Shown: positions 6,565 through 24,474 of the stretch, piece after piece
Position numbering within the stretch: the stretch's first letter is position 1
Layout of the letters: every line of letters starts with the position of its first letter
Notes under the pieces: generated by a model
Databases searched by the model: none
What the model saw: the letters and a program-made list of their open reading frames with translations, nothing else
Told to the model about the DNA's origin: nothing
DNA from: Escherichia phage ukendt
Sequence record: NC_052661.1
DNA length: 64,000 bases
Reading direction: 5' to 3' (one strand)
Made by a program: the position numbers and the translations under genes

Positions 6565-6594
6565 TTGACAAACGTATCCTTCATATGTTAGGAT
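6565..6594 (+). promoter_or_regulatory. sigma70-like promoter (TTGACA, 18-nt spacer, TG-extended TAGGAT)
   Basis: Exact TTGACA at 6565..6570; TG then TAGGAT at 6589..6594; upstream of the first tRNA pair; overlaps the hairpin. Confidence 0.4.
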
Positions 6595-6804
6595 ACGTTC
6601 ATCAAGTGTGGTAACAGGGTCGTTGACTTTTGTTAAGAGAGGCTTGCACTGCGGATAGTGTTAGAGACTACTTCTTCAGAGGTTAGCTACCAAAGAGGAA
6701 AAGGAATAGTCTCGGCTCAAGAACTTTTACGCTGAAAGTTGGGCTTGGTCTTAGAGAATGTAGCGGTTCTCTACAATCGTCAGCGTCTCTGTTACCACAT
6801 TTAT

Positions 6805-6879
6805 GGCCCTGTAGCTCAATGGGAGAGCTGTCGGCTCATAACCGATAGGTAGCTGGATCGAAACCAGCCAGGGCCACCA
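6805..6879 (+). tRNA. tRNA-Met (anticodon CAT; elongator vs initiator vs Ile-lysidine not resolved)
   Basis: Hand-folded cloverleaf: acceptor GGCCCTG/CAGGGCC, D-stem GCTC/GAGC, anticodon loop CTCATAA, T-arm GCTGG-ATCGAAA-CCAGC, encoded CCA. Confidence 0.75.
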
Positions 6880-6881
6880 AC

Positions 6882-6956
6882 GTCTTTATGGTGTAATGGA
6901 TAGCACAGGAGTCTTCTAAACTCTTAGTCAAGGTTCGATTCCTTGTAAAGACACCA
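6882..6956 (+). tRNA. tRNA-Arg (anticodon TCT)
   Basis: Acceptor GTCTTTA/TAAAGAC, anticodon loop CTTCTAA, T-arm CAAGG-TTCGATT-CCTTG, encoded CCA. Confidence 0.75.
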
Positions 6957-7028
6957 GAACATTTTAACATGAATTAGCTCAAGTGATTTGAACCCACTAC
7001 TGATCATGGTGGCAGAGAATGAGGTAAG

Positions 7029-7100
7029 TATGTCAGACATTATAAACAAAGGCCACGGTTATATTAGAAGACATAAATGCTCGAAGAGCACCGTTCGCTG
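7029..7100 (+). CDS. possible 23-codon micro-ORF between tRNA blocks
   Basis: ATG 7029 with GAGG 5 nt upstream; MSDIINKGHGYIRRHKCSKSTVR; may equally be untranslated spacer or RNA. Confidence 0.15.
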
Positions 7101-7152
7101 AGAACGGGGGTTGGTGGAGTCACCATTCATGGTAAAATGTTTTAAAAAACTA

Positions 7153-7182
7153 TTGACAACTAACACTATTTTATGTTAGATT
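7153..7182 (+). promoter_or_regulatory. sigma70-like promoter (TTGACA, 18 nt, TG-extended TAGATT)
   Basis: Exact -35 at 7153..7158; predicted start site a few nt before tRNA-Ser at 7191. Confidence 0.5.
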
Positions 7183-7190
7183 ATAAGCAT

Positions 7191-7281
7191 GGAAGGGCAA
7201 ATCGACGTGGCGACGAAAACGGTCTTGAAAACCGCCGAGCTTGAAAGAGCCTTGGGAGTTCGACTCTCCCTCCTTCCGCCA
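7191..7281 (+). tRNA. tRNA-Ser (anticodon TGA), type II
   Basis: Acceptor GGAAGGG/TCCTTCC, anticodon arm ACGGT-CTTGAAA-ACCGC, long variable arm, T-arm GGGAG-TTCGACT-CTCCC, G73, CCA. Confidence 0.7.
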
Positions 7282-7285
7282 GATT

Positions 7286-7371
7286 GGTAGATTGGTGAAA
7301 TGGTAGCCACGACAGTTTGCTAAACTGTAGTCGGAAACGGCGTGTAGGTTCGAGTCCTACATCTACCGCCA
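7286..7371 (+). tRNA. tRNA-Ser (anticodon GCT), type II
   Basis: Acceptor GGTAGAT/ATCTACC, anticodon arm ACAGT-TTGCTAA-ACTGT, long variable arm, T-arm GTAGG-TTCGAGT-CCTAC, G73, CCA. Confidence 0.75.
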
Positions 7372-7501
7372 AGTTCTTTTTAATGTAGCTTACTTTAGCA
7401 GAGTAAATCTTCGGCAAGTGGCGGTAACCACTTTACCGATACCTCATAGTTAGTGGTGTGAACACTGGCTATTTTAAAAAGAATTTAAATATTAGTATTT
7501 A

Positions 7502-7589
7502 GGTGAGTTAATTCCGTAGGGGTAGCGGGGCAGACTGTAAATCTGTTATCATTGCGATTCGGGTGGTTCGACTCCATCACTCACCACCA
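7502..7589 (+). tRNA. tRNA-Tyr (anticodon GTA), type II, with atypical 5' region
   Basis: Acceptor GGTGAGT/ACTCACC perfect, anticodon arm GCAGA-CTGTAAA-TCTGT, A73, CCA; junction between acceptor and D-arm is longer than canonical. Confidence 0.5.
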
Positions 7590-7595
7590 AATTAA

Positions 7596-7681
7596 GATGA
7601 GTTGGCTGAATGGTTTAAGCGGCGGACTGTTAATCCGTGTTCGAAAGAACAATATAGGTTCGAATCCTATACTCATCGCCA
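7596..7681 (+). tRNA. type II (long variable arm) tRNA with anticodon GTT; isotype ambiguous (Ser-like body, Asn anticodon)
   Basis: Acceptor GATGAGT/ACTCATC, D-stem GCT/AGC, anticodon arm GCGGA-CTGTTAA-TCCGT, variable-arm hairpin GTTC-GAAA-GAAC, T-arm ATAGG-TTCGAAT-CCTAT, G73, CCA. Confidence 0.55.
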
Positions 7682-7688
7682 GAATTAT

Positions 7689-7765
7689 GGACTTGTAGAG
7701 TTAAGGTAAACCCCCAGTCGCCAATAGGCTTCTGGAATTGCAGGTATCGAATCCTGCCGAGTCCC
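7689..7765 (+). pseudogene. tRNA-like remnant (acceptor and T-arm-like pairing, no canonical anticodon arm)
   Basis: GGACTTG...CGAGTCC acceptor-like pairing, T-like GCAGG-TATCGAAT-CCTGC with 8-nt loop, no encoded CCA, no 5-bp/7-nt anticodon arm found. Confidence 0.25.
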
Positions 7766-7771
7766 AGCATT

Positions 7772-7846
7772 GCTCCTATAGTATAATGGCTATTACAACG
7801 GTTTTGTAATCCGTGGATCTCTGTTCGATTCAGTGTGGGAGCACCA
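7772..7846 (+). tRNA. tRNA-Thr (anticodon TGT)
   Basis: Acceptor GCTCCTA/TGGGAGC with one G-U pair, anticodon loop TTTGTAA, T-loop TTCGATT, encoded CCA. Confidence 0.65.
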
Positions 7847-8118
7847 ACACAACATTAAGAGCACTGTGATTGATCGTCGTATCCTGTGCACAAGGTCTGC
7901 TCGAAAGACAGTGTTCTTAGTATTGTGTTGATCACAAAAAGAGTCACCCGAAACTTGACCGGAGTAGGGTTGGATGGGGCAAAATGAGAAGCGGCTCTCC
8001 CATCGACAGCAACGAAGAATAATATTTGACTTTGGTTTTGTATTATTTAAGTTAGCTTACCGAACGTAGGGCTAGTCACCCAACGGGATACTCGTCACTG
8101 TCCCAATCAATAAAAGTC

Positions 8119-8148
8119 TTGACAACAAATAGTAAAATGTAGTATAGT
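8119..8148 (+). promoter_or_regulatory. sigma70-like promoter (TTGACA, 18 nt, TG-extended TATAGT)
   Basis: Exact -35 at 8119..8124 and TATAGT at 8143..8148; predicted start just upstream of tRNA-Gly. Confidence 0.55.
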
Positions 8149-8159
8149 AAAGATATAGG

Positions 8160-8233
8160 GCGTTCTTGGTGTAGCGGTAGCATTCCGTCCTTCCAAGTCG
8201 GCGGCACGAGTTCGATCCTCGTAGAACGCTCCA
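8160..8233 (+). tRNA. tRNA-Gly (anticodon TCC)
   Basis: Acceptor GCGTTCT/AGAACGC, anticodon loop CTTCCAA, T-arm ACGAG-TTCGATC-CTCGT, encoded CCA. Confidence 0.7.
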
Positions 8234-8330
8234 AATTATTTAATAAAGGGTTGCCAGAAAACTTTCTCTTTTACTCATGGTTTTCTCCTTCTCTCACACT
8301 TCTTCTGGTTGCCCTTCATTAAATGATTTT

Positions 8331-8406
8331 TGGTTTGTAGTGTAGTCCGGTAGCACACGACACTTTGACTGTCGTAGGTTTGGTTCAAATCCAGACAGAC
8401 CAGCCA
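8331..8406 (+). tRNA. tRNA-Gln (anticodon TTG)
   Basis: U1-A72 pair and G73 as in enterobacterial tRNA-Gln; anticodon arm CGACA-CTTTGAC-TGTCG; T-loop TTCAAAT; CCA. Confidence 0.7.
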
Positions 8407-8411
8407 TATAA

Positions 8412-8488
8412 CGGAATTTAGCTCAGTTTGGTAGAGTGTACGCTTTGGGAGCGTATTGTCGCAGGTTCGAATCCTGCAATTCCGACCA
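8412..8488 (+). tRNA. tRNA-Pro (anticodon TGG)
   Basis: Acceptor CGGAATT/AATTCCG, anticodon arm TACGC-TTTGGGA-GCGTA, T-arm GCAGG-TTCGAAT-CCTGC, CCA. Confidence 0.8.
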
Positions 8489-8494
8489 ATTAAA

Positions 8495-8568
8495 TGTTTC
8501 GTAGTTCAATGGTAGAACCCACGACTGATAATCGTGAGACACAAGTTCGATTCTTGTCGAAACAACCA
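8495..8568 (+). tRNA. tRNA-Ile (anticodon GAT)
   Basis: Acceptor TGTTTCG/CGAAACA, D-arm GTTC-AATGGTA-GAAC, anticodon arm CACGA-CTGATAA-TCGTG, T-arm ACAAG-TTCGATT-CTTGT, CCA. Confidence 0.8.
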
Positions 8569-8570
8569 GT

Positions 8571-8643
8571 TTCCCGTTAGACTTACAGGATAAGAGTTCC
8601 ACAGCTTATTGTGATGCTGGTTCGAATCCAGCACGGGATACAT
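8571..8643 (+). pseudogene. tRNA-like remnant (good T-arm, degenerate anticodon arm, no CCA)
   Basis: T-arm GCTGG-TTCGAAT-CCAGC and 6/7 acceptor pairing (TTCCCGT/ACGGGAT); no acceptable anticodon stem-loop. Confidence 0.25.
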
Positions 8644-8646
8644 AAT

Positions 8647-8725
8647 AGCGGGATAGAGGAGTCTGGTCGTCCTCGCCAGTTTCATATGCTGGAGATCATT
8701 GGTTCAAATCCGATTCCCGCCTCCA
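8647..8725 (+). tRNA. second CAT-anticodon tRNA (Met/initiator/Ile-lysidine), with a 1-72 mismatch
   Basis: Anticodon arm CCAGT-TTCATAT-GCTGG, T-loop TTCAAAT, acceptor AGCGGGA/TCCCGCC with an A1-C72 mismatch, CCA. Confidence 0.6.
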
Positions 8726-8840
8726 AATATCGCTTGCCAGCGGTATCTTTGAAGACCTTGCCTGGTTCCTTCTAAGATGGAGGGGTGCGACTCCTTAACG
8801 CACAATTATAATAAAGCATTTCAAATTAACAGTATTTATT

Positions 8841-8864
8841 AGCCTCCTTATTGGAGGCTTTTTG
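8841..8864 (+). terminator. rho-independent terminator closing the tRNA array
   Basis: AGCCTCC-TTATT-GGAGGCT hairpin followed by TTTTT. Confidence 0.7.
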
Positions 8865-8883
8865 CTATCTATTGAATAAAACT

Positions 8884-8911
8884 TGACTTATTATTTTTTA
8901 TATGTTAAGAT
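8884..8911 (+). promoter_or_regulatory. sigma70-like promoter (TTGACT, 16 nt, TG-extended TAAGAT)
   Basis: -35 at 8884..8889; TG at 8903..8904 then TAAGAT; AGGAGG RBS and ATG 8933 follow. Confidence 0.5.
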
Positions 8912-8932
8912 AAAGTTTAGGAGGATTTTATT

Positions 8933-9229
8933 ATGCCTAAACTAAAACGTGGTCGTGGAAGACCAACAGCCGAAATGCAACAGATCTACGCAATGGATGC
9001 GGCGCAAGCAAGTGTAAAAGAATTATTTGCAGAGCATTATTTAGAAGCTATGCGATATATTGTTGAACTTGTTAATGATAAGGATGCAGCAAAACCTCTC
9101 CGCTTCCAAGCAGCTAAAGCTATTAAAGAGCAAGTAGAAGAATGGTTAGAAGAACATTATGAAGCTATGGAAGAAGAAACCCCTGCCGTGCAGAATACAG
9201 ATGACGTTCCTAAAAAGATCGTAATCTAA
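8933..9229 (+). CDS. hypothetical protein; possible small terminase subunit / DNA-binding protein
   Basis: N-terminal KRGRGRP basic motif; first ORF of the module that contains the large terminase; AGGAGG RBS. Confidence 0.3.
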   Translation: MPKLKRGRGRPTAEMQQIYAMDAAQASVKELFAEHYLEAMRYIVELVNDKDAAKPLRFQAAKAIKEQVEEWLEEHYEAMEEETPAVQNTDDVPKKIVI

Positions 9230-9369
9230 TCCCTCTCCTCTCTTGGGGCTTTGCCCCTCCTCCTTGTTATTTTTAACACCCCTCTCCGAAAGGTTAGGGG
9301 CTTTTTTATTTTTAATGCTTGCAATTGTATATCATTTTGTGATAAGATCAGATATGAGGAGGATAAAAT

Positions 9370-9540
9370 ATGCGCAATTTTGTAGTTAAAAATGATTTTA
9401 ACCGTTCTTCTTATCATAAAGATAAAAAGAATGATTACACACGGGTTTGGAACTTGGAGGAAGAACTTTATGATGACAGAGAAGACTTGGGAAGAGATCC
9501 TAGCGGAGGCTCAACCAATGGAAGTGAAGAAGATAGTTAA
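9370..9540 (+). CDS. possible 56-aa ORF missing from the track
   Basis: ATG 9370 preceded by GAGGAGG; acidic product; overlaps the 9392..9607 track ORF in another frame, so at most one is real. Confidence 0.25.
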   Translation: MRNFVVKNDFNRSSYHKDKKNDYTRVWNLEEELYDDREDLGRDPSGGSTNGSEEDS

Positions 9541-9590
9541 CAACGCCCCTTCTCTTCCTAAAATAAAATTTTATGAGGAAGTAGAAGATA

Positions 9591-9983
9591 ATGAATCTAA
9601 AGACTAAAACTGTATTAAGTTTTGTTTTAATTGTTGTTCTTATTCTTGCCGGAATGTTTGCTTATAACAAGATACGTGAGTCTGGCTACAAAGATGGTGT
9701 TGCCTATCAAACGCAAGTATATCAAGCAGCCCAAGCAAAAGCAAAACAAGATTTCGATGTTCTTCAAAAAAGAGCGGATGAAGAAAGAGCATTATTAAAT
9801 ACTCAAATAAACAACTTGTCTAAAAACAATGCACAATTAAAAGCAGATTTAGAGAAGAAGAAACAAACGATCAATGAGGATACAACGAATTATGCAAAAA
9901 CTAATTCTGGCAGTATGTCTTGCTTTGCCCCTAATGATGACGGGTTGTTCATCATCAACAAAAGTTTCCCCAGTTCTTATTGA
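9591..9983 (+). CDS. i-spanin (Rz-like inner-membrane spanin)
   Basis: N-terminal transmembrane segment VLSFVLIVVLILAGMFAY followed by a long coiled-coil; overlapped by a lipoprotein ORF in another frame. Confidence 0.55.
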   Translation: MNLKTKTVLSFVLIVVLILAGMFAYNKIRESGYKDGVAYQTQVYQAAQAKAKQDFDVLQKRADEERALLNTQINNLSKNNAQLKADLEKKKQTINEDTTNYAKTNSGSMSCFAPNDDGLFIINKSFPSSY

Positions 9984-10218
9984 TGAGTGTAAGGCCGTAG
10001 CAATAGAAAAGGTTAAAGGTCCAGATTCGGACTTGATGGATAAAGTATCGACACCTGTGCCATACACTAAAAATCAAATTGCAAAAGGGGTTAGTAGATC
10101 TGAAGTTGTCAACAACCAAACTCAAAACAATGCTCTTTGGGAGCAAGATAGACGAAAGGTTTTAGGTTTACAAGCATATATTAAAACACTGCAAGAAAAA
10201 GGTATTATTGCTGAATAA
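9874..10218 (+). CDS. o-spanin (Rz1-like outer-membrane lipoprotein); start may be ATG 9892
   Basis: Signal sequence ending in lipobox-like LMMTG-C; begins inside the i-spanin gene in a different frame. Confidence 0.5.
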   Translation: MRIQRIMQKLILAVCLALPLMMTGCSSSTKVSPVLIDECKAVAIEKVKGPDSDLMDKVSTPVPYTKNQIAKGVSRSEVVNNQTQNNALWEQDRRKVLGLQAYIKTLQEKGIIAE

Positions 10219-10227
10219 GGAGGGAAT

Positions 10228-12303
10228 GTGGCAAAGAAAAAGGCAGCAGGTAGTTTAGCTGGAGTAGATATTGAAGTAAAGGCTCAACCAGGTAAACAGA
10301 CTCTTGCAATGGATTTAATGCCAGAAGTTATGATTTATGGTGGTGCCGCTGGATGTGTTTCTGCTGAAACGGAATATCTTACAAAAGATGGTTGGAGACA
10401 GATTAGTGAATATTCGGGAGAAGATATTTACCAATACAACCCTAAGAATAAGCGTTTAGAATTGGTAACACCTTACTTTGTAGAATACGATTTAAATGGA
10501 GATAATCTATACAGAATAACAAATGGTGTAGGATTGTTCCAAGAACTTAGTATGGAACACCGTTTTGTATTCTATAAGAAAAAGAAATCAAAGAAACATT
10601 TCGAGATTCTTGTAGGAGATCTTATTGCATTACAGCAAATAGGAAAACCCCTGCAAGGTTATGTAGAAAATCCATTCGGTAAACGTGTTCCTTTTAACAT
10701 ACCTGGTAAAAAGAGCACTTACTTAAAAATACACGAGGTTATTTCAACAGATGATAAGAAATATTGTTTTGAGACTCCAAGCAGCTATATTGTCTTTAGA
10801 CGTGGCGATCACTGCTTCGTTACTGGGAATAGCGGCAAGTCTCGTCTGCTATTGCTGAAAGCTTTAAAATACGCCTACAAAGACCCTTTGTTTGGTGGAA
10901 TACTTTTCCGTAAGAACACCACTGCTCACCGTAAACCAGGTGGTCTGTTTACAGAAGCAAAACGTTTGTATCTTCCTTTACAACCGCACGTAAAAGAAAG
11001 TACAATGGATATCATTTTTGAAGCCACTGGCGGTGGAACCCTCAAATTTGACCATTTGGAAAACGATAACGTAACCGCAGAAACAAACCATCAGGGTACA
11101 CAGTATTCAATGGTAGGTTTTGACGAGTTAACCCACTTCACACAGTATGAAATGCTCTATCTTCTGGGACGTATGCGTTCAGAATCAGAAACAAGCTTCA
11201 TGTTGTGCACATGTAACCCCGATGCAGATAGTTGGGTTTTGAATTGGGTACTACCTTATCTCGATGAGGGCGGTTATCCTAGAGAAGATATGTGTGGTAA
11301 ACAAAAATATTTCATCATTGTTAACGATGAACCTGTTTTTGCTGACACACCTGAAGAACTGAAAGAAAAATATCCAGAAAACTGTTTCATGGAAAACCCT
11401 AATACAGGGGAGACAGTTATTATTGAACCACAAACTTTCGTATTTATCGGTGGGACAATATTTGATAACCCAGAATTGATTAGGCTTAACCCTAATTATT
11501 TAGCACAGCTTAAATCACAAACAGCAATCAAAAGAGCACAACTCTTGGACGGCTGTTGGTTTGCACGTATACAGAAAGAGTCTTTCTTCCAACGTGAATG
11601 GTTGCATAAGATATCTTATAAAGATGTTCCTAATAATCTTAAACTAATGCGAGCATGGGATAAAGCTGTTTCAGTTCCTACAGAAACTTATCGTTATCCA
11701 GACTATACAACATCTGTCAAAATGGGTAAAGACCAAGATGGTAATATCTACATCTTTGGTGACTATGATTATGATGCTGTGGATGAGAAAAGTAAAATTT
11801 TCGGAAGGTTTCGAAGATTACCTGGGGAAAGGGATAACCTGATTCTAAATCAATGTAAGATTGATGGACCAGAAGTTACAGTAGTTCTTCCTAAAGACCC
11901 ATCTGGTGCTGGGACAATAGAATATACAGAGTCTGCAAAGAAACTTATTCTAGAGGGTTTTGTTGTTAAACCGGATGCTATGCCAGGTAACAAGAAAAAG
12001 CTTCAGCGTTTTATGCCTTTTAGTAGTGCGTGTCAAAACGGTTTTGTTTATATTGTTGAAGATTCTTTCCCTAATGTGGAAACTTTAACCCACTTTTATA
12101 AAGAATTGGAATCTTTCAATGGTGAAAGATCTACAGCCACTATTAAAGATGACATTCCCGATGCTGCTGCTTCTTGTTTCAATACTCTGTCAAAAGAGAA
12201 TACTTTCAAAGCAGTAGCTATCCCTGCAACAACAAATGCTCCTACAGGATACAGTAGAATGAACAGCGGATTTCACCAACCGTATAGTGTCCGTAAAAGA
12301 TAA
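10228..12303 (+). CDS. terL: terminase large subunit, interrupted by an in-frame intein
   Basis: GTG start after AAGGAGGG RBS; Walker A reconstituted as GAAGSGKS once residues 43-201 are removed; Walker B MVGFDEL; nuclease-like C-terminal half. Confidence 0.85.
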   Translation: MAKKKAAGSLAGVDIEVKAQPGKQTLAMDLMPEVMIYGGAAGCVSAETEYLTKDGWRQISEYSGEDIYQYNPKNKRLELVTPYFVEYDLNGDNLYRITNGVGLFQELSMEHRFVFYKKKKSKKHFEILVGDLIALQQIGKPLQGYVENPFGKRVPFNIPGKKSTYLKIHEVISTDDKKYCFETPSSYIVFRRGDHCFVTGNSGKSRLLLLKALKYAYKDPLFGGILFRKNTTAHRKPGGLFTEAKRLYLPLQPHVKESTMDIIFEATGGGTLKFDHLENDNVTAETNHQGTQYSMVGFDELTHFTQYEMLYLLGRMRSESETSFMLCTCNPDADSWVLNWVLPYLDEGGYPREDMCGKQKYFIIVNDEPVFADTPEELKEKYPENCFMENPNTGETVIIEPQTFVFIGGTIFDNPELIRLNPNYLAQLKSQTAIKRAQLLDGCWFARIQKESFFQREWLHKISYKDVPNNLKLMRAWDKAVSVPTETYRYPDYTTSVKMGKDQDGNIYIFGDYDYDAVDEKSKIFGRFRRLPGERDNLILNQCKIDGPEVTVVLPKDPSGAGTIEYTESAKKLILEGFVVKPDAMPGNKKKLQRFMPFSSACQNGFVYIVEDSFPNVETLTHFYKELESFNGERSTATIKDDIPDAAASCFNTLSKENTFKAVAIPATTNAPTGYSRMNSGFHQPYSVRKR
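10354..10830 (+). mobile_element. mini-intein (159 aa) inserted in the terminase P-loop
   Basis: Begins with Cys43 (CVSAETEYLTKDGW), S-x-x-H block (SMEH), ends ...HCFVTGN followed by Ser; no endonuclease-sized domain. Confidence 0.75.
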
Positions 12304-12306
12304 TTG

Positions 12307-12336
12307 TTGACAAAAGTCACTTTAAAGTGTATTATA
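12307..12336 (+). promoter_or_regulatory. sigma70-like promoter (TTGACA, 17 nt, TATTAT with upstream TG)
   Basis: Exact -35 at 12307..12312 and TATTAT at 12330..12335, between terminase and portal genes. Confidence 0.5.
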
Positions 12337-12404
12337 ACTAGATAGGTGAGGTTGTATATAATACAGCCTTGCCTTAACGATTTTATACCTGACTGGAGGA
12401 ACAA

Positions 12405-13970
12405 GTGTCAACAGGAAAAAGAACGTACACTAAAAAGTCAGAATACTGGGACAAAGGTGCTGCAAATAAAGCTGCTCTCTCTCCAACAAAAGAGGCAGAG
12501 AAAGAGAAAACGTTACTCCTGTCACCTGAAATAGGAACGATCGGATTAAACTCAATCAAAGCATTTACGAATTTCATGCAACCTTATGAGACTCGTTTCC
12601 CAGAATGTATTCGCACTTTTAAAGAGATGGGTGAAGACCCTGATGTAGCTACTGCTCTTGACGCTACATATATCTTTGTAGATAGAGCATTCTTTGATTT
12701 CAAGATAAAATACAATGTAAACTCGGCAAAGTCAAGAAAAGCTGCTAAGTTTATTGATTACATGTTACGCAATATGCAAGCCCCTCTACGTCAATATGTT
12801 AGATCACTTTTGACATATAAGCAATATGGTTTTGCATTCGCAGAGAAAGTTTATGAGTTGGATGAAGATCCTAAAAGTCCTTACTTTGGGTATTGGCGAT
12901 TGACCAAACTGGCTTTTAGACCACAAGACACTCTTCACATGGCTCAACCTTTTACATATTCGGCAGACGGACGTTCTATTCTATCTGTTAACCAGAATAT
13001 CACCAATACGATGTTAGCTCCAGGTAATACAACTTTAGAAACTGGTATTAAAGAAATTCCTTTCAGTAAAGTTTTATTTGTTGGTAGTAACATTACAGAG
13101 AATAACCCACTAGGAGTTAGTCCGCTTTTAGCTGTATATCGTAGCTGGCGTGAAAAATCTCTTATTCAGGAATTTGAGGTTATTGGGGTATCTAAAGATT
13201 TAGGTGGTATGCCAGTTCTTAAGGTTCCAAGTGACATTCTAAACAGAGCATCTTTAGATCCTGCTGGGGATGAAGCACAATCTCTTCGAGTTCTCCAAGC
13301 CAACATCGCTAACCTGCACTCTGGTGAGCAAGCCTACATGGTATTGCCTTCAGACGTTTATGAAGGCACAGTGATGCGTCAATACGATCTTGTATTCCAA
13401 GGTGTTGATGGCACGGGTAAACAGTTTGACACTCAAGCACTAATCAAACAACGCAAGCTAGATATTTATAACCGCTTTGGTGCGGGTGTGTTGATTATGG
13501 GTGATGGTGATGCAGGAAGTTTTGCGCTTTCTGACAACAAACAAACACTATTGTCTCATTTTATTGAGCGAGATGTAGATATTGTTGTAGAAGCTATAAA
13601 CTCTCAACTGATCCCTCAAACACTACGACTAAACAATATCTTCCTTTCTGATGAAGATATGCCTAAGTTTGTCAGTGGTGAAATGGGTGATCCTGATATT
13701 GAAGTAAATGCTAAAGCTATTCAGCAGTTGGTAGCCTCTGGTGCAATACCTTTAACACCAGAAGTTATTAACGAGTTCCTTGAAAAAATTGGTTTTGAAT
13801 ATCGTATCCCTGACGATATTGTTGCCAATAAAGAGAAATTCTTTGAATTCATGGATAACTACATGCCTGACAAAACTTCACGATCAGGAGATGGTTTAGC
13901 TACAGCGGGAACTGGAACGTCTGATACTGTTTCTGCTTTAGATCCTTCAGCACAAAACCTGTCGAATTAA
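12405..13970 (+). CDS. portal protein
   Basis: 521-aa ORF immediately after large terminase; GTG start with GGAGGA RBS; call is by position and size only. Confidence 0.55.
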   Translation: MSTGKRTYTKKSEYWDKGAANKAALSPTKEAEKEKTLLLSPEIGTIGLNSIKAFTNFMQPYETRFPECIRTFKEMGEDPDVATALDATYIFVDRAFFDFKIKYNVNSAKSRKAAKFIDYMLRNMQAPLRQYVRSLLTYKQYGFAFAEKVYELDEDPKSPYFGYWRLTKLAFRPQDTLHMAQPFTYSADGRSILSVNQNITNTMLAPGNTTLETGIKEIPFSKVLFVGSNITENNPLGVSPLLAVYRSWREKSLIQEFEVIGVSKDLGGMPVLKVPSDILNRASLDPAGDEAQSLRVLQANIANLHSGEQAYMVLPSDVYEGTVMRQYDLVFQGVDGTGKQFDTQALIKQRKLDIYNRFGAGVLIMGDGDAGSFALSDNKQTLLSHFIERDVDIVVEAINSQLIPQTLRLNNIFLSDEDMPKFVSGEMGDPDIEVNAKAIQQLVASGAIPLTPEVINEFLEKIGFEYRIPDDIVANKEKFFEFMDNYMPDKTSRSGDGLATAGTGTSDTVSALDPSAQNLSN

Positions 13971-13998
13971 AAATATTTAATATTTTTTAATTTTTCTA

Positions 13999-14027
13999 TT
14001 GACAAAACAACAAATATCCTGTAGACT
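13999..14027 (+). promoter_or_regulatory. sigma70-like promoter (TTGACA, 17 nt, TG-extended TAGACT)
   Basis: Exact -35 at 13999..14004 in the AT-rich spacer after the portal gene. Confidence 0.45.
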
Positions 14028-14063
14028 AAGATTTATGGGATATCTGTTTTTAAGAGGTTTCAA

Positions 14064-14543
14064 ATGGAACTCAATAAAGATACACTGTGGGAACTCTTCA
14101 AAACCTTCGCTGGTTTTAAAGAGAATTCTGAATCCCAACAAGATTCTATACCATCTCAAAAACCTGAAACTCTAGTCAAACAAAATAAATTTGATGAAGA
14201 AAAGATGCAGGTTATTGAGGTCTTGTATTGTCCACCTGAAGAAGACGATCTCCACGGAGAGCGCATGTCTGATTTGGAAATCAGGAAGATGGTTGACAAC
14301 TTCAATGAGAATATTACCAATATTAGTGGTAATCTTGGTCACATGAAGAACACCGATAAGTTTTCTCCAATTAAAGCTTGGGTAAATGAAGTCGATTGTT
14401 ACATTGGTGACGAACTCGTTGTGGAAGGAACTCCCCTCGTTAAAATCCAATTCAACGACCCTGAATTATATCAAGCTCGTAAAGACGGCGTTCTTAAAGG
14501 TTTGAGTATAGGCGCAATGGGCGTTAAAGTCAAGAAGGACTAA
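14064..14543 (+). CDS. hypothetical head-morphogenesis protein
   Basis: 159-aa acidic ORF between portal and scaffold genes. Confidence 0.3.
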   Translation: MELNKDTLWELFKTFAGFKENSESQQDSIPSQKPETLVKQNKFDEEKMQVIEVLYCPPEEDDLHGERMSDLEIRKMVDNFNENITNISGNLGHMKNTDKFSPIKAWVNEVDCYIGDELVVEGTPLVKIQFNDPELYQARKDGVLKGLSIGAMGVKVKKD

Positions 14544-14545
14544 TC

Positions 14546-17102: not shown

Positions 17103-17123
17103 TAGAACTCTGTTAAGATTAGA

Positions 17124-17154
17124 GGCTCGTCCGTGATGGGCGAGCCTTTTCTGT
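17124..17154 (+). terminator. rho-independent terminator after the major capsid gene
   Basis: GGCTCG...CGAGCC stem followed by TTTTCTGTTT. Confidence 0.7.
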
Positions 17155-19039: not shown

Positions 19040-19670
19040 TATTTACCAACAAATAGAAGCATACGAAAATGCCATCTACTTAAATATAGGTGGCTTCCTT
19101 CAAGAATTAGTGGGGTTGCCAGTCTATGTTATGGATAAGCCATTCATTAAACCGGATACTCCTTACCTAGCACTACGTATTATCACTTCCAGCGATTCTG
19201 GAGGTTGGTCTTACCGAAGCTCTATTCAAAATGATATGTATTCCTACGAGATGGATAATACCTACGAGATTGAACTTGTAGCCTATCGTGGAAGACCTAC
19301 TACTTTGATGAGCTATGTTCTGGCTGCTCTCCGTGGTGCAGAGGAATTAAAATACAAACATCTCTATTCTAAAGGTCTTGGTTTTTTAGGAGCCTCCAAT
19401 ATAGCTCAAGCCAATACAATTGTAGACGGAGATAAGACTGAATTAAGAGCGCGTATGGTTATGACGTTCAACACTCGTATGAGTATTGAAGATATTGCTA
19501 CTACACCAATAGAAGCAATCAACATGCACATCCGTTCATTCAGAGATAGTTACAATGATCCTATCCCTTTAGATTTAATTCTAAACAGGGTTTATGCAAT
19601 TACTTTGGTTCCAGGCGAATACTCGTCAGTTAATCAAAATGGATCATTATTTAACAACCCTACCGAATAA
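19032..19670 (+). CDS. hypothetical neck/tail-completion protein (start refined to TTG 19032)
   Basis: AGGAGG at 19021..19026 then TTG 19032, in frame with the track ORF starting 19011. Confidence 0.35.
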   Translation: MANIYQQIEAYENAIYLNIGGFLQELVGLPVYVMDKPFIKPDTPYLALRIITSSDSGGWSYRSSIQNDMYSYEMDNTYEIELVAYRGRPTTLMSYVLAALRGAEELKYKHLYSKGLGFLGASNIAQANTIVDGDKTELRARMVMTFNTRMSIEDIATTPIEAINMHIRSFRDSYNDPIPLDLILNRVYAITLVPGEYSSVNQNGSLFNNPTE

Positions 19671-19704
19671 ACTCATTGGAATTAAGTTTCTAACAGGAGC
19701 ATAA

Positions 19705-21078
19705 ATGGCAACTTTTCGTGAAAAGGTAGCAACCGTAACTTTACTGTATGGTGCTACATCAATTCGTGAAACCCAGTTCGATATTCCCCTGATCCTTACA
19801 GGTCAGAACGTAACTGGCGAAGCGATTCAATATTACTCTTCTTCCGATGCACTTTTGGAAGCAGGTTATGGATTAAATGATCCAGCGTATATTATGGCAG
19901 TCAAACTGTTTAACGGTTTGTTCCCACCAGATCAAGTTATGGTTGGTAAGCGTGAAGTTACAAACTTTACTCTAACTCCAATCGTAGAAGATAGTACAAC
20001 TTACACAATTACCATCAAAAATGGTACCAAGAAAAAAGAATTTAAATTCATTGCTGATGACACTGCAACTGCACAAGAGATTGTAGTTGGTCTGACTGAA
20101 ATGATCAATGCAGATCTTGTTTATGGCCCACTGTTTACAGTAGCTAACAACGGCGCTGCAATGACTTTCACTCCAGTAGAAGGTAAGTTTGGTTCTATTG
20201 ACAGCACAGGTTTCACTCAAGAAACTGTCTATGCTAATGCTATTACGGAAGATATCGCTGCTCTGCATGATATTGATAGTAGCTGGTTCTGGACCCTTTC
20301 AGATTCCCATGAAACAGAAGATGTTCTAGCTTTGGCTGCATGGGTAGAAGAGAATGATAAAGTTTACTTCTTCTCTAGCTCTGAACCTGGAATTAAAACG
20401 AAAGCAGAAGATAACGTTCTGGAACGACTGAATGACCTCGGTTATAATAACACTTGCTTTGCTTTGTGGATGACTGATGCAGATTCTGTATTCCCAGAAG
20501 CAGCAGTTGTTGGTGCAATCTGTTCTCGTCAACCTGGTTTAACTACTCTTCACGGTAAAACACTGGTAGGTGTAGAGATCGAGAAACTGGATCAGACTTC
20601 GGAAAACAATATTGTTCAACAGAACGGTAACATCTATCGTAAAGAGCATGGAACTCTGTTCTATCGTGATGGATTGATGGTTAGCGGTTTCTTTGTTGAC
20701 TATGTTGTTCATGCTTTGTGGTTTAAAGCTCGCACAGAAGAATCACTGTTTACACTGTTTAAACAACAGTCTATGCTGGGTGGTGGTGTTCGTGCTACTT
20801 CAAACGGTCTAGCTTTGATTCGACAAGCTGTTCTGGCTAACCCGATCCAAGTAGGTATCCTCAACGGTTCCATCGCTAATGAAGTTGTTACTTCTGAAGA
20901 GACTGGTTTGCGTGTCGATCTGAAACCTATTGTTTATATTCCTTCTCGTGCCGATATGACCGATGCGCAAATCAATGCTCGTCTGGTTGATGGGATGAAG
21001 ATTGAATATGTTTACGCTGGCTTCTTCCATTACGTTAAAGTTCAGGTCAACGTCCTGACTAACCGTACTGCAAACTAA
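19705..21078 (+). CDS. tail sheath protein (tentative)
   Basis: 457-aa ORF followed by a ~160-aa tube-sized ORF, a frameshifted chaperone and the tape measure; baseplate wedge-like gene further on supports a contractile tail. Confidence 0.5.
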   Translation: MATFREKVATVTLLYGATSIRETQFDIPLILTGQNVTGEAIQYYSSSDALLEAGYGLNDPAYIMAVKLFNGLFPPDQVMVGKREVTNFTLTPIVEDSTTYTITIKNGTKKKEFKFIADDTATAQEIVVGLTEMINADLVYGPLFTVANNGAAMTFTPVEGKFGSIDSTGFTQETVYANAITEDIAALHDIDSSWFWTLSDSHETEDVLALAAWVEENDKVYFFSSSEPGIKTKAEDNVLERLNDLGYNNTCFALWMTDADSVFPEAAVVGAICSRQPGLTTLHGKTLVGVEIEKLDQTSENNIVQQNGNIYRKEHGTLFYRDGLMVSGFFVDYVVHALWFKARTEESLFTLFKQQSMLGGGVRATSNGLALIRQAVLANPIQVGILNGSIANEVVTSEETGLRVDLKPIVYIPSRADMTDAQINARLVDGMKIEYVYAGFFHYVKVQVNVLTNRTAN

Positions 21079-21083
21079 TACGG

Positions 21084-21100
21084 CGGGGGTTAAGCCCCCG
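21084..21100 (+). terminator. GC-rich hairpin after the sheath gene (weak terminator or stability element)
   Basis: CGGGGG-TTAAG-CCCCCG; downstream T-tract is poor. Confidence 0.35.
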
Positions 21101-21124
21101 TTATCAAAATAAAGAGGATCTATA

Positions 21125-21604
21125 ATGGATAAAATGCTTACTGGCGTAATGGCCTACGACCCATCTCAAGTTATCCTTTCATTAGGTGGTTGGGAACCGT
21201 GGGGTTTTGCGGCTGATACTAAAATCGTTATTGCTAAATCTAACGATATTATCAACCCTTATTCAGGGACTGATGGGGACGTTTCATTAGCTTTGAGTCG
21301 TAACCGTTTGGGAACACTCACAATGTCTTTGCAACGCACATCTCCAGCTAACGAAGTACTTGCAACATATGCACAAACAATGTATTCTACTCGTCAAGTA
21401 GCATTCAGTGTTTACTTGGAAGACCCACGTGGCTATTACATTAGCACGATTGGATGGATTCAAAGTCAGCCTGAAGATACTATTGGCGAAATGATTACAG
21501 AGAACCAATGGGTTATTGGTCTTAAAGATGCAAGCCTTCTGCGTAATGAAGTTGGTGTAGGTTTGAGCACCCTTAACTCAATCTCTGCTCTGACAATTCA
21601 ATAA
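21125..21604 (+). CDS. tail tube protein (tentative)
   Basis: 159-aa ORF between sheath-like gene and chaperone; flanked by terminator hairpins. Confidence 0.5.
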   Translation: MDKMLTGVMAYDPSQVILSLGGWEPWGFAADTKIVIAKSNDIINPYSGTDGDVSLALSRNRLGTLTMSLQRTSPANEVLATYAQTMYSTRQVAFSVYLEDPRGYYISTIGWIQSQPEDTIGEMITENQWVIGLKDASLLRNEVGVGLSTLNSISALTIQ

Positions 21605-21611
21605 TAAATAA

Positions 21612-21632
21612 AGGGCAGAAATGCCCTTTTTA
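21612..21632 (+). terminator. rho-independent terminator after the tube gene
   Basis: AGGGCA-GAAA-TGCCCT hairpin followed by TTTTTA. Confidence 0.65.
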
Positions 21633-21649
21633 TCATTAGAGAGGAAAAT

Positions 21650-22132
21650 ATGTCACAAGAACAAGATAACACAATTCAAAAATATGCTCGACCAGAAGAA
21701 GTAGTTGAGATTCCATTAGATGGAAACAGATCTGTTACTTTCCGTATTATGAAATGGAGTCCATCTAAAGTGTTCGACAGGATTCCAGAATTAGGTAGTG
21801 TTCTGGTTGTTCCTATGACTATGTATAGCACAGCAACAATGTCCGCAGACGAAGACCTTGAGTCACGTATTGCTATGGCACTGATCCAACTTTTTGCAGG
21901 TTTGGAAGAAAAGAATTTAACTGTCTTTTTGCGTAAAATTTTAGATGAGGTTTATACCCAAGACGGTTATAACGTTGCAGAAAATTTTGATGAATTATTT
22001 ATGGCTCACCCAGAACTAGTGTTAGATCTTACTGCTAAAGTTCTGGAGGTAAACTACGGCCCTTTTTTCAAACGAGGTTTCGGAAAACTGTTCACACAGC
22101 TTCAGGCGATGACGAGTTTAGCAGCAAATTAA
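21650..22132 (+). CDS. tail assembly chaperone (short, in-frame product)
   Basis: 160-aa acidic ORF directly upstream of the tape measure; contains slippery heptamer T-TTT-TTC. Confidence 0.55.
   Translation: MSQEQDNTIQKYARPEEVVEIPLDGNRSVTFRIMKWSPSKVFDRIPELGSVLVVPMTMYSTATMSADEDLESRIAMALIQLFAGLEEKNLTVFLRKILDEVYTQDGYNVAENFDELFMAHPELVLDLTAKVLEVNYGPFFKRGFGKLFTQLQAMTSLAAN
22063..22069 (+). promoter_or_regulatory. -1 programmed ribosomal frameshift slippery site (TTTTTTC)
   Basis: X-XXY-YYZ heptamer in the zero frame of the chaperone ORF; the -1 frame is open from 22039 through 22398. Confidence 0.5.
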
Positions 22133-22398
22133 CACCTGCGATTGAACATGCTATCGACACAGCAACGAAAACCCTTACTTTGAAGTGGTATGAGGTTATT
22201 CTTTGCAAAGTCGTTAAAGATACCTCGGAAACACTGAAAACATTAGATAACTACGGTGTAGATTATCTTTTAAAACTATATGAGTATTTAACATACGAAG
22301 AGTATGTTGAAGCCATGTATGTTAAAGACACTTCAATAAAGAGAAAACATCAAAACCAGACAAATAAAATGTCAGATTTGTTTAAGAAACTTGTTTAA
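22069..22398 (+). CDS. C-terminal extension of the chaperone made by -1 frameshift (fusion of about 248 aa)
   Basis: -1 frame open across the overlap; the downstream track ORF has only a TTG start and no RBS, consistent with expression by frameshift. Confidence 0.45.
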   Translation, partial: QTRFRKTVHTASGDDEFSSKLTPAIEHAIDTATKTLTLKWYEVILCKVVKDTSETLKTLDNYGVDYLLKLYEYLTYEEYVEAMYVKDTSIKRKHQNQTNKMSDLFKKLV

Positions 22399-22418
22399 TC
22401 CAACACGAGGAACATACT

Positions 22419-24407
22419 TTGTTAGAAATTAACGCCTCCAGAATTAGTAACGTGGTTACGTTTAAGGTGGACAAGAACAGTCTCAAGGAAGCAAAAGATG
22501 CCGTGTTGAGTGTTCAGAAGTTTGCAAATAAAATGCAACCCACTATGAACATGACCAAGTTTAGACAACAAATGAAAGAGATTGAACGTGAACTTAAGAA
22601 AGCTCAAACTCAAAGCCAAAAACCTATGCGAGCACCTACTCCCGCTGGAGCGGGTGCTCCTGTAGGTGGTTCTGGTAGACCTAGAACTCCTAAAACCCCA
22701 CAAGGTAGAGAAGAAGAAAAAGCTCGTAAAGCGGCTGAACGCGAAGCTAAAGCAGCAGCACGTAGGGAAGACTTAGGTAATCTTCGTTTACAGAACTTTA
22801 ACTATCGAGCAAGAGCATTTAGTAAAGCCAGTCCTGGAGCTATGCAAGAAGCTAGAGACGTTATGGGTAAAGCTGTAGAGCAATACAAAAAAGGTGAAAT
22901 AACTCTTCAACGTATGAACCAAGCTCTTGCTCACCAGTTAGATGCTTTACGCAGATCTCATCGTGAAAAGAATGCTGAAATAGAAGATGAGGTTCGCGGT
23001 CGTCGCCGTATTCGTAGAGAGCTAGAAGCAGAAGCTAAAATGCGTATACGTATGCGAAATCGTGAACTTAGGGATATAGAACGAAATCGTAAGCGTGAAT
23101 TGGCACAACAAAAACGTGATCGTGATCGTAGATATGGACAACTAAAAGAAGGTGCAGCAGGTCTTAATCCACGCATGATTGCATCCTCTTTGATTGGTGC
23201 TGGGCTGTTTGCAGGTGGTTCTGTAGTTGGTAACACGTTGATGAATACTAACGAAAGAATTAAACTTGTAAGCCGTGGTGCTGAAAACGTTCAGACAAAC
23301 GCCAACGCTATTTTGGCAATGACAGCTTGGGGTGAACAGAACGGTGTAGACTCTGCAAATATTATTAAATCAATAGATAATATTAAAGACGTTCGTGAAC
23401 GTCTTGGTAATACAGTTTTAGCTGCAAAGTGGAATGAGAAAGAAGGGAAGTGGAAAGGCGGTGATAATGGCATAACTGACATTATGAACTTGTTTGGATG
23501 GAATCCAGAACAGCTTAAACCTTTACAGAACGATCCTTTAGCTTTTATTCAGGCTACTGTTAATGAAGGTGAGCGTCGAGGTATGAACTCTGCTCAAATA
23601 GGGCGACTTCTTGAAAACCTTGGTGATGACCTTATGCACTACCAACGTATGTTTAGTAAAAACGGCGAAGGGTATAATGAAGTATTGAAAATGCTTCAAA
23701 GAACAGGTGCAACATTAACTCAAGAACAAATAGATGCTTCTAAAGAGTTTACTCGTTTTGCTGCAACAGTTCAGCTTGTAGGTCAAGGTATGCAGAACCA
23801 CTTCTTAGAGGGTTTTGTGAAAGCCTTACCTAAAGATGATTCTTGGTTGGATAACGTTAAAGTGCTAGATCAGTTTGCCAAAGATTTAGGTGAAGAACTC
23901 GGTAAGACAACAGTTCAATTAGGAGGTTTTGCTAAAGAATTGGGAGATGGTTTCGGATCTTTTACCAATTGGCTTAAAGAAACATTCCCAGATACATTCG
24001 GAGACAACACAGATCCTAATAAATCTATGGCACAAAAAGCATACGAGGCAACGCAAAGTGGAGACAGCAATCCTGTAGCAGATTGGTTGTACAATTTAAC
24101 AGGTATTGATACACAAGACATTGGTCGTATGTGGAGAGGAGAACAAACAAGGACACGTGCTTTTGGATTTGGTAATCCTCTTGAAGATTTACGTGAATCA
24201 GCCTACACACCTAACGTAAGTTTGGCTCGTAATCAACCTGTTGTTGAGAATACGGTAGCAATACCAAGTGATCTTATCAAAGTTACGATCAGCCCTTCTT
24301 CAGAGTTTGGAAATATTCTTGATGCAAGAATTCAAAATAGCGGAAATAGCATTTTCCAACGTTTGTCTCTTTCAACTCTAAGTGGACAATCTAACACTGG
24401 TGGTTAA
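22419..24407 (+). CDS. tail tape measure protein
   Basis: 662 aa; long Arg/Glu/Ala-rich predicted coiled-coil; sits after the frameshifted chaperone; TTG start with GAGGA RBS. Confidence 0.7.
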   Translation: MLEINASRISNVVTFKVDKNSLKEAKDAVLSVQKFANKMQPTMNMTKFRQQMKEIERELKKAQTQSQKPMRAPTPAGAGAPVGGSGRPRTPKTPQGREEEKARKAAEREAKAAARREDLGNLRLQNFNYRARAFSKASPGAMQEARDVMGKAVEQYKKGEITLQRMNQALAHQLDALRRSHREKNAEIEDEVRGRRRIRRELEAEAKMRIRMRNRELRDIERNRKRELAQQKRDRDRRYGQLKEGAAGLNPRMIASSLIGAGLFAGGSVVGNTLMNTNERIKLVSRGAENVQTNANAILAMTAWGEQNGVDSANIIKSIDNIKDVRERLGNTVLAAKWNEKEGKWKGGDNGITDIMNLFGWNPEQLKPLQNDPLAFIQATVNEGERRGMNSAQIGRLLENLGDDLMHYQRMFSKNGEGYNEVLKMLQRTGATLTQEQIDASKEFTRFAATVQLVGQGMQNHFLEGFVKALPKDDSWLDNVKVLDQFAKDLGEELGKTTVQLGGFAKELGDGFGSFTNWLKETFPDTFGDNTDPNKSMAQKAYEATQSGDSNPVADWLYNLTGIDTQDIGRMWRGEQTRTRAFGFGNPLEDLRESAYTPNVSLARNQPVVENTVAIPSDLIKVTISPSSEFGNILDARIQNSGNSIFQRLSLSTLSGQSNTGG

Positions 24408-24414
24408 TAAAATA

Positions 24415-24436
24415 CCTCGCTTCGGCGGGGTTTTTT
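24415..24436 (+). terminator. rho-independent terminator after the tape measure gene
   Basis: CCTCGC-TTCG-GCGGGG (UUCG tetraloop) followed by TTTTTT. Confidence 0.75.
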
Positions 24437-24444
24437 CGTTTCCC

Positions 24445-24474
24445 TTGACACGAAGTTTCTATATGTGTTACAAT
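24445..24474 (+). promoter_or_regulatory. sigma70-like promoter (TTGACA, 18 nt, TG-extended TACAAT)
   Basis: Exact -35 at 24445..24450, TACAAT at 24469..24474, just after the terminator and before the baseplate genes. Confidence 0.55.

Follow-up and report, generated by a model that had tools for sequence, protein, structure and literature searches.

A 64,000-nucleotide stretch of Escherichia phage ukendt (sequence record NC_052661.1; "the window" in what follows) carries fifteen promoter-like sites, which are probably functional promoters for the E-sigma-70 RNA polymerase of the Escherichia coli host, for the most part with the "-35/TGn" architecture (UP, -35, extended -10 and weak -10 elements). 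Near-perfect matches of this type are strongly enriched over shuffled DNA, gather in the gaps between genes, face the gene or tRNA that follows, and recur at equivalent positions in other genera, so that the use of these sites by sigma-70 is well supported in silico. The window comes from a Phapecoctavirus, a phAPEC8/ESCO13-like E. coli myovirus with a genome of about 150 kb. Over positions 1-25000 the window shares 98.8% identity with Escherichia phage ESCO13 (NC_047770.1, Phapecoctavirus, Stephanstirmvirinae), and it has matches in dozens of phAPEC8-like genomes. It is 61% A+T, and 7.8% of it is non-coding.

Promoter architecture

Eight of the sites had been picked out by a first-pass annotation, at 6565, 7153, 8119, 8884, 12307, 13999 and 24445 on the plus strand and at 56499 on the minus strand. 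They were described as TTGACA or TTGACT followed 16-18 nt later by a TG-preceded -10-like hexamer, several of them with a shared TATGT core. All eight are present, six exactly where they had been placed and two displaced by one position, to 8883 and 56498. The -35 is an exact TTGACA at seven of them and TTGACT at 8883. Spacers of 17 or 18 bp are seen, and one of 16 bp at none. The TG is less general than had been proposed: it stands in the canonical register (-15/-14, TGnTAnnnT) at 6565, 7153, 8883 and 24445, and the other four sites depart from it. At 12307 (gTG/TATTAT) and 13999 (cTG/TAGACT) the TG abuts the hexamer, one base off register, at 8119 it lies at -17/-16, and at 56498 there is none. 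The shared core is real at TATGTTAGGAT (6565), TATGTTAGATT (7153) and TATGTTAAGAT (8883), and looser at 24445 and 8119.

Seven further members (5519, 6008, 9319, 29935 and 38448 on the plus strand, 50402 and 63026 on the minus strand) bring the set to fifteen. When the fifteen are anchored on the -10 hexamer, T-12, A-11 and T-7 are found at every site, preceded by T-17 at 11, R-16 at 14, T-15 at 12 and G-14 at 11 of the 15. These frequencies indicate that the "TATGT core" is a TRTGn extended -10 element. The TG itself occupies -15/-14 in 11 of the 15 sites, as part of the TRTG consensus. The -35 hexamer is TTGACA at nine sites, TTGACT at four and TTGCAA at two, and the spacer measures 17 bp in seven and 18 bp in eight. 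Among the -10 words are weak ones (TAGGAT, TAAGAT, TAGATT, TAAACT and TACCCT) that match 3-4 of the 6 consensus positions. The tracts upstream of the sites are mostly A/T-rich, with fractions of 0.40-0.97 and a median of 0.70.

In the -35/TGn class of E. coli promoters, contacts with the -35 and the TGn offset a weak -10; spacers of at least 18 bp and weak -10 hexamers are commoner among TGn promoters, and positions -17/-16 (TRTG) modulate activity (PMC2613000). The window sites are probably recognised directly by unmodified host E-sigma-70 in the same manner. Region 4 of sigma would bind the perfect or near-perfect TTGACA and regions 2.4/3 the TRTGn element, and these contacts would make up for a non-consensus -10, of which only T-12, A-11 and T-7 are kept, and for a slightly long spacer of 17-18 bp. 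Transcription would then start about 7 nt past the -10 hexamer.

Enrichment and position of the sites

Enrichment over shuffled sequence, which the first-pass annotation had named as a check, is strong for near-perfect matches. The extended pattern TTGACW-N13-16-TGNTANNNT (the TGnTAnnnT pattern) occurs 9 times in the window as against 0.82±0.90 times in 100 dinucleotide shuffles, none of which reaches 9, and its TRTG version occurs 8 times where 0.25 is expected. A sigma-70 weight matrix, which scores the -35, the spacer, the -10 and a TG bonus, gives 14 strong matches (at least 14 bits) in the whole window, with 1.2±0.9 expected from dinucleotide shuffles of it. Nine of these lie in the 4.6 kb of non-coding segments, where 0.07 is expected and where a maximum of 1 was found in 500 shuffles of the same segments. 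Together with the site at 6008, which stands at a gene boundary, 10 of the 14 top matches thus fall in 7.8% of the window (binomial P = 6e-9), and all ten face a downstream gene or tRNA. A relaxed consensus scan of the window (at least 9 of 12 matches) gives no enrichment, with 47 matches against 50.7±9.0 in shuffles. This null result is not taken as a refutation, because the signal is confined to near-perfect matches. Base composition fails to explain the enrichment, since non-coding DNA is no richer in A/T (fraction 0.608) than the window as a whole (0.606).

Conservation across related phages

Syntenic 28-kb loci were compared in phiWec190, a divergent Phapecoctavirus (about 80% identical), in phi92, a Justusliebigvirus (about 74%), and in Klebsiella phage phi1_175008 (about 72%). 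The extended pattern is found 6-8 times per locus in phiWec190 and the Klebsiella phage, as against 0.23-0.24 expected from shuffles, and 8 times in the phi92 locus, a count made without shuffle comparison. Nearly all of these matches lie on the gene strand, at equivalent intergenic positions.

The sites that follow are on the plus strand unless marked otherwise. P12307 (12307..12335, TTGACA-17-TATTAT; 14.0 bits) occupies the gap between the TerL and portal genes. In the four genomes its TTGACAAAA is invariant, and its -10 turns over between TATTAT, TACAAT and TGnTAAAGT. P13999 (13999..14027, TTGACA-17-TAGACT; 14.5 bits), between the portal and protease genes, stands upstream of the operon for prohead protease, scaffold, decoration and major capsid proteins, and from the -35 through the ribosome-binding site it is almost invariant in the four. 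P24445 (24445..24474, TTGACA-18-TGTGtTACAAT), between the tape-measure gene and the Dit-like gene with its baseplate module, has the window's top score of 16.5 bits; its TTGACA and TGnTAnnAT are invariant in four genomes amid diverged flanks. At P8883 (8883..8911, TTGACT-17-TATGtTAAGAT; 14.0 bits), upstream of gene 8933-9229 (putative TerS), the -35 varies between TTGACT and TTTACA, with an invariant aTGnTA...T in the same number of genomes. P8119 (8119..8148, TTGACA-18-TATAGT without the canonical TGn; 14.2 bits), which ends 11 nt before the tRNA-Gly at 8160, keeps TTGACAA and the -10 positions T, A, A, G and T in all four. P9319 (9319..9348, TTGCAA-18-TGTGaTAAGAT), upstream of a block of small genes, spanin genes and TerL, again in four genomes conserves TTGC and TTTTRTGATAWGAT, and the terminator upstream of it is nearly invariant. 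The complete -35 hexamer is invariant in the four genomes at P8119, P12307, P13999 and P24445. The phi92 and Klebsiella phage orthologues of P12307, like the phi92 orthologue of P8119, carry a TGn.

Further orthologues are found around the tRNA region. P6565 (6565..6594, TTGACA-18-TATGtTAGGAT; 14.9 bits), the first promoter of that region, has one in phiWec190 at locus position 7272. P7153 (7153..7182, TTGACA-18-TATGtTAGATT; 14.9 bits) has two, at locus positions 7459 in phi92 and 7861 in phiWec190, both with TATGTTAGATT. P6008 (6008..6036, TTGACT-17-TGcTAAACT; 14.6 bits) shares bases with the stop codon of gene 5826-6011, and its end is 12 nt from the ATG at 6049; its phiWec190 orthologue is at 6701. 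P5519 (5519..5548, TTGACT-18-TGcTACCCT; 12.7 bits) lies in the divergent intergenic region 5344-5825, with orthologues at 6229 in phiWec190 and 3386 in phi92. A sub-family shares its odd -10 word and context, TATG(C/G)TACCCTAA after TTGACT or TTGACA: its members are the window site at 5519, L005 at 16373 (minus strand), the ESCO13 locus at 30041 (minus strand) and the phi92 locus at 3386. In the window, phi92 and phiWec190, this site sits in a divergent intergenic region.

On the minus strand, P-50402 (50373..50402, TTGACA-18-TATGaTAGGAT; 14.9 bits) precedes gene 49972-50364. A gap of 8 nt separates its -10 from the ATG at 50364, and a Shine-Dalgarno sequence is absent. So short a distance implies that the mRNA would be leaderless or nearly so. 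The -35, TTTTATGATAGGAT and this 8-nt gap are all kept in phiWec188, at an overall identity of 70%. P-56498 (56470..56498, minus strand, TTGACA-17-TATACT with no TG; 15.2 bits) follows a GGGCTTCGGCCC hairpin and is located after the primase/helicase gene, upstream of gene 56005-56436. Justusliebigvirus has a rearranged gene order at this locus, with an endonuclease gene coming after the helicase gene. P-63026 (62998..63026, minus strand, TTGCAA-17-TGtTATACT; 12.9 bits) is preceded by a G/C-rich hairpin.

Two candidate internal sites lie within coding sequence. P38448 (38448..38476, TTGACT-17-TATGtTAAACT; 14.6 bits), at the 3' end of a gp6-like baseplate wedge gene and 109 nt before the gene at 38585, was compared in three lineages, one of them 68% identical overall. 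Its CGCTTGACTTC and TGTTTATGTTAAACT are invariant, giving runs of 11 consecutive bases over the -35 and 15 over the TRTGn and -10, and the spacer between them is variable. P29935 (29935..29964, TTGACT-18-TGTGgTACAAT; 15.2 bits), within the 958-aa tail gene 28506-31382, is invariant with respect to a Justusliebigvirus sequence of 78% overall identity, which is weak evidence because two sequences were compared.

Between orthologues, spacer length is kept or shifted by 1 bp and spacer sequence varies. Hexamers and TG held at a fixed spacing, with a varying spacer and a -10 that is swapped for other TAnnnT words, point to selection on the contacts made by RNA polymerase. The sites before structural genes are as strongly conserved as those before tRNAs.

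Terminators, leaders and transcription units

From the arrangement of these elements a recurring module can be proposed, in the order terminator hairpin, A/T-rich tract, promoter, often a 5' stem-loop, and then a ribosome-binding site or tRNA. All the features of this section are on the plus strand. An intrinsic terminator at 8841..8859 (7-bp stem and T-run) closes the tRNA region directly upstream of P8883, with a hairpin present in three of the four genomes. Another at 9279..9307 (CCCCTCTCCGAAAGGTTAGGGG and a T-run) lies upstream of P9319. A strong one at 17121..17149, with a 13-bp stem, is found just after the major capsid gene and would close the operon that begins at P13999. The fourth, at 24414..24431, comes after the tape-measure gene and directly upstream of P24445; it is shared by the window and phi92, another hairpin stands in its place in phiWec190, and none is aligned in the Klebsiella phage.

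Stem-loops are also found on the other side of the promoters. In the 5' untranslated region of the portal mRNA, a hairpin at 12344..12374 starts about 3-6 nt past the predicted start of P12307. It is found at the same place in four genomes (-19 to -21 kcal/mol), with a different stem sequence in each. Such hairpins, alike in place and unrelated in sequence, fit a 5'-terminal mRNA stem-loop. A smaller one at 24484..24504 follows P24445; it is the same in phiWec190 and weaker in phi92, with a different sequence. In the tRNA region, P6565 is followed by a structured leader of about 200 nt and then by tRNA-Met and tRNA-Arg. Gaps of 8-11 nt separate P7153 and P8119 from the 5' ends of the tRNA or tRNA-like genes that follow them. 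For P7153, transcription is predicted to start about 2 nt before the tRNA-like gene 7191-7277, after which come tRNA-Ser, tRNA-Asn and tRNA-Thr.

Transcription of the rightward region could thus be divided as follows. P6565, P7153 and P8119 would each drive one of three tRNA units, P8883 the putative TerS gene, P9319 the lysis/TerL block and P12307 the portal gene. The protease-scaffold-decoration-capsid operon would be read from P13999 and end at the 17121 terminator. The baseplate and tail-fibre block would be read from P24445, probably reinforced by P29935 and P38448, the two probable internal sites within these 25 kb. The first-pass annotation had set its sites before tRNA groups and before small-terminase, portal, head and baseplate genes. 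These contexts are borne out for the tRNA groups, the portal gene, the head operon (with the protease gene 14064-14543) and the baseplate module (with the Dit-like gene 24534-25235). Before 8933-9229 the promoter-like site is there, and the name of the gene depends on one annotation alone. The broader proposal, that host sigma-70 drives much of this region including structural genes, is plausible. There are conserved sites upstream of the putative TerS gene, of the lysis/TerL block, of the portal gene, of the protease-capsid operon and of the baseplate module, and two more within baseplate and tail genes. The tail module discussed below, which has no such site, speaks against it. The narrower reading of the sites as sigma-70-type promoters draws on their enrichment, intergenic position and orientation, on their pairing with terminators, and on the conservation of RNA polymerase contacts in three genus-level lineages. 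The inspected ESCO13 annotation, which comprised the record on either side of positions 75826-99813, contains no sigma factor or RNA polymerase, and no other upstream motif is enriched in the window.

A palindrome, ACAAATATCC-N18-GGATATCTGT, at 14010..14047 spans the -10 and predicted start of P13999 and is conserved in the four-genome alignment of that site. Over 13999-14060 the mean column identity in the four genomes is 87%, as against about 74% in the flanking coding DNA. This region may act on the head operon as an operator, or as a site that controls translation. We also considered whether the TATCC...GGATA palindromes of P6565 and P13999 form one shared operator; the idea was dropped because the palindrome of P6565 is not conserved in phiWec190.

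The tRNA region holds other RNA structures. Between P6565 and tRNA-Met, a structured RNA of about 200 nt that bears no annotation (6600-6804, plus strand) has a minimum free energy of -78 kcal/mol (z = -6.1 against shuffles). A closing 16-bp stem pairs its two ends directly past P6565, and it belongs to no Rfam family. The spacers 6957-7152 (z = -3.5), whose two ends form a terminal stem, and 7847-8118 (z = -2.2), both on the plus strand, also fold better than shuffles. Two plus-strand genes were missed by ARAGORN: the long-arm tRNA-like gene 7191-7277, which scores 37.4 bits on the tRNA-Sec model (gathering score 47), and 7502-7586, which scores 39 bits on the tRNA model and lies at the position of the tRNA-Tyr of related records.

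Timing and alternative explanations

Several points weigh against the view that host sigma-70 transcribes the region from these sites. Half of the eight sites first picked out (8119, 12307, 13999 and 56498) are without a canonical TGn. The weight-matrix scan finds no comparable plus-strand site from 17.1 to 24.4 kb, where the neck, sheath, tube and tape-measure genes are found, so that transcription of these genes would have to come from read-through of the 17121 terminator or from an unrecognised promoter. The sites within coding sequence (29935 and 38448) could be conserved partly through protein constraint. From strong, constitutive-looking sigma-70 promoters one would expect early transcription of the virion genes behind them, which would be unusual for a large virulent myovirus unless the promoters are restrained. 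Finally, a literature search on Phapecoctavirus, Stephanstirmvirinae and Vequintavirinae found no start-site, transcriptome, in vitro transcription or reporter study.

A second type of promoter is relevant to timing. The early small-gene cluster of ESCO13, which lies outside the window (record 139.3-149.3 kb; locus 39.5-49.5 kb), contains about 20 near-identical promoters in the 70-80-nt gaps between its small genes. They consist of an A-tract, TTGACA, N16 (14 of 20) and TAnnnT, and are followed by the hairpin-forming leader GTATCACRTAGGGCGG(c/g)aatggtgCCGC, possibly an mRNA stabiliser or regulatory site. A 16-bp spacer is found at none of the 15 window sites and at 14 of the 20 early-cluster promoters (Fisher P = 1.8e-5). 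The leader box (CRTAGGGCGG) has one mismatched match in the window, within coding DNA, against 1.6 expected, and none beyond chance. Elsewhere in the genome, the 17-18 bp class of the window also precedes replication and nucleotide-metabolism genes; it therefore marks "non-early-cluster" genes generally, not virion genes specifically. Since the early cluster uses a different, stereotyped sigma-70-like class, sequence alone is silent on when the window class fires.

It is possible, if on the whole unlikely, that the window sites are real sigma-70 promoters that form a separate, regulated class (middle/late or delayed), set apart by the 17-18 bp spacer, reliance on TRTGn and a weak -10. Their full activity or correct timing would then need a phage-induced change, such as a factor remodelling region 4 of sigma-70, an activator or repressor, or a shift in supercoiling. 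The distinct early-cluster class fits such regulation, with a 16-bp spacer and a leader that are both unseen at the window sites, as does the near-invariance of P13999 from -35 to ribosome-binding site with a palindrome, perhaps an operator, over its -10. The authors of the rV5 genome study also noted a Srd-like anti-sigma candidate (PMC3606486). However, the 17-18 bp class is found before tRNA genes, replication genes and structural genes without distinction, and thus does not separate middle from late. No regulator for it was identified, the palindrome of P6565 is not conserved in phiWec190, and the differences in spacer and -10 may reflect strength and not timing.

As a related and rather doubtful proposal, the whole programme could run on unmodified or lightly modified E-sigma-70 through the two promoter classes, with the difference in spacer, -10 and leader, and possibly the P13999 palindrome, as the timing device. 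Were this proposal true, a virulent myovirus of 150 kb would order early and late expression with neither a phage sigma factor nor a T4-like late system.

It is improbable that the sites serve only early or low-level expression and the tRNAs, with the bulk of virion transcription coming from an unrecognised phage late promoter or a modified polymerase, as in T4. Beyond the T4 paradigm itself, this explanation can draw on the T4-late-like TggTAaAAtA found upstream of rV5 late genes (PMC3606486), on the confinement of Certrevirus sigma-70-like promoters to early and middle regions (PMC7344957), and on the tail genes at 17.1-24.4 kb with no sigma-70-like site. A T4-type gp55-dependent late promoter was tried and rejected: its motif, TATAAATA, is not enriched, with 8 copies in the window, of which 1 is non-coding (5753) and none is upstream of structural genes. 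The rV5 late motif TGGTAAAATA is absent from the window, and a search for enriched k-mers from -120 to -15 of 78 genes in the window gave nothing convincing. In rV5, moreover, no homologues of gp33, gp45 or gp55 were found (PMC3606486), and the equally strong conservation of structural-gene and tRNA sites in our comparison is at odds with a minor role of the former.

That the sites are chance products of A/T-rich intergenic DNA, or operators of a DNA-binding protein other than polymerase, is a reading with next to no probability, effectively refuted by the enrichment and conservation data: the flat relaxed scan and the A/T-rich window are in its favour, but near-perfect matches are enriched 10- to 100-fold even against shuffled non-coding segments, that DNA is no more A/T-rich than its surroundings, conservation is bipartite with fixed spacing and a variable spacer sequence, and the -10 changes while keeping T-12, A-11 and T-7, a sigma-70 contact signature unlike that of a protein operator.

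Gene layout and related records

The window opens with small leftward genes (1-5343, minus strand), followed by the divergent intergenic region (5344-5825) and three small rightward genes. In the divergent region, 5595-5800 holds five tandem GTACT-containing repeats (gtactctgtactcaagtactgtactccgtact) and then long A/T-only palindromic runs, an arrangement that could represent an origin of replication or an array for a regulator. The tRNA region (6558-8932, plus strand) covers 2.3 kb, in which ARAGORN finds 10 tRNAs and Rfam adds two tRNA-like genes; an Rfam scan of 5300-9500 found nothing besides tRNAs. The rightward virion block begins with a 98-aa gene, the lysis/spanin genes, TerL, portal, prohead protease, scaffold, decoration and major capsid, and continues with neck and tail genes, tape measure, the Dit-like protein (24534-25235) and baseplate and fibre genes, up to 49017. 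Leftward genes, including replication genes, occupy the minus strand from 49074 onward. Within the tail-fibre region, 35968-36383 is a 416-nt segment with several G/C-rich hairpins and with neither a convincing open reading frame nor a sigma-70-like site.

Two of these genes call for comment. Gene 14064-14543 (plus strand) encodes the prohead protease, as it matches Peptidase_S78_2 (XkdF-type, E = 1.4e-11) and head-maturation-protease PHROGs. It is labelled "DNA methyltransferase" in RefSeq and several GenBank records, a label that probably comes from a fusion family. For the 98-aa product of 8933-9229, the "small terminase" label is backed by one deposited GenBank annotation only; the protein has no Pfam match, and its PHROG family is without an assigned function.

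Some database matches to 5300-14300 carry surprising host names. "Campylobacter phage B15" is 99% identical, "Acinetobacter phage vB_AbaM_ABPW7" is 99.1% identical over 900 bp, and the "Campylobacter phage A150" and "A110a" records match at about 74% (phi92-like). It is likely that these four deposits have a mislabelled host or are contaminated.

Comparison with known systems

That coliphages have host-type promoters with an extended -10 is textbook knowledge, and the sites described here change no concept. Their practical value is modest: they give a conserved, testable map of promoters and operons for phAPEC8/phi92-like therapeutic coliphages, and they supply compact promoter parts that are predicted to be strong. 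They also support an idea raised for rV5, namely that phages of this supergroup depend on the sigma-70 holoenzyme of the host, virion genes included. The deposited annotation tables that were inspected list no promoter features.

The closest likeness is to the E. coli promoters with a -35 and an extended -10, such as gapA P1, T4 Pminor and cspA (PMC2613000). There too, a good -35 and a TGn offset a -10 that keeps T-12, A-11 and T-7, with a tendency to 18-bp spacers and an A/T-rich upstream tract. The window sites, known from sequence, differ in that the -35 is usually a perfect TTGACA and that odd -10 words (TAGGAT, TAAGAT, TAGATT, TACCCT) recur within one genome. T4 early promoters are likewise phage promoters for unmodified host E-sigma-70, and combine the UP, -35, TGn and -10 elements (PMC2613000). 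They drive early genes only, however, and are succeeded by MotA/AsiA middle and gp55 late promoters, whereas the window type precedes tRNA, replication and virion genes, and a separate class with a 16-bp spacer and leader hairpin marks the early cluster.

Among related large myoviruses, rV5 (Vequintavirinae) has 33 predicted sigma-70 consensus promoters genome-wide, 11 of them with an extended -10, and its authors suggested that T4-style reprogramming of the polymerase might not occur (PMC3606486). The consensus-like promoters of that phage extend to late regions, as here, and the same use of host polymerase was proposed. It belongs to another subfamily, its sites are non-orthologous to ours as far as compared, and they come from a consensus search only, as against the cross-genus conservation described here. 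In Certrevirus, a genus related to the rV5 supergroup, the promoter AAAA(N3-4)TGTTGAC(N17-19)TATAAT is found in the early and middle regions of phages CB7, CR3, CR8 and CR9 (PMC7344957). It shares with the window sites an UP-like A-tract, a TTGAC -35 and a -10, and is common to members of the genus, but it is confined to those two regions, has a consensus TATAAT, and is described with no emphasis on a TGn. The promoters of the window are of an ordinary, well-known host type, the Stephanstirmvirinae counterpart of those predicted for rV5 and Certrevirus, with evidence from conservation added.

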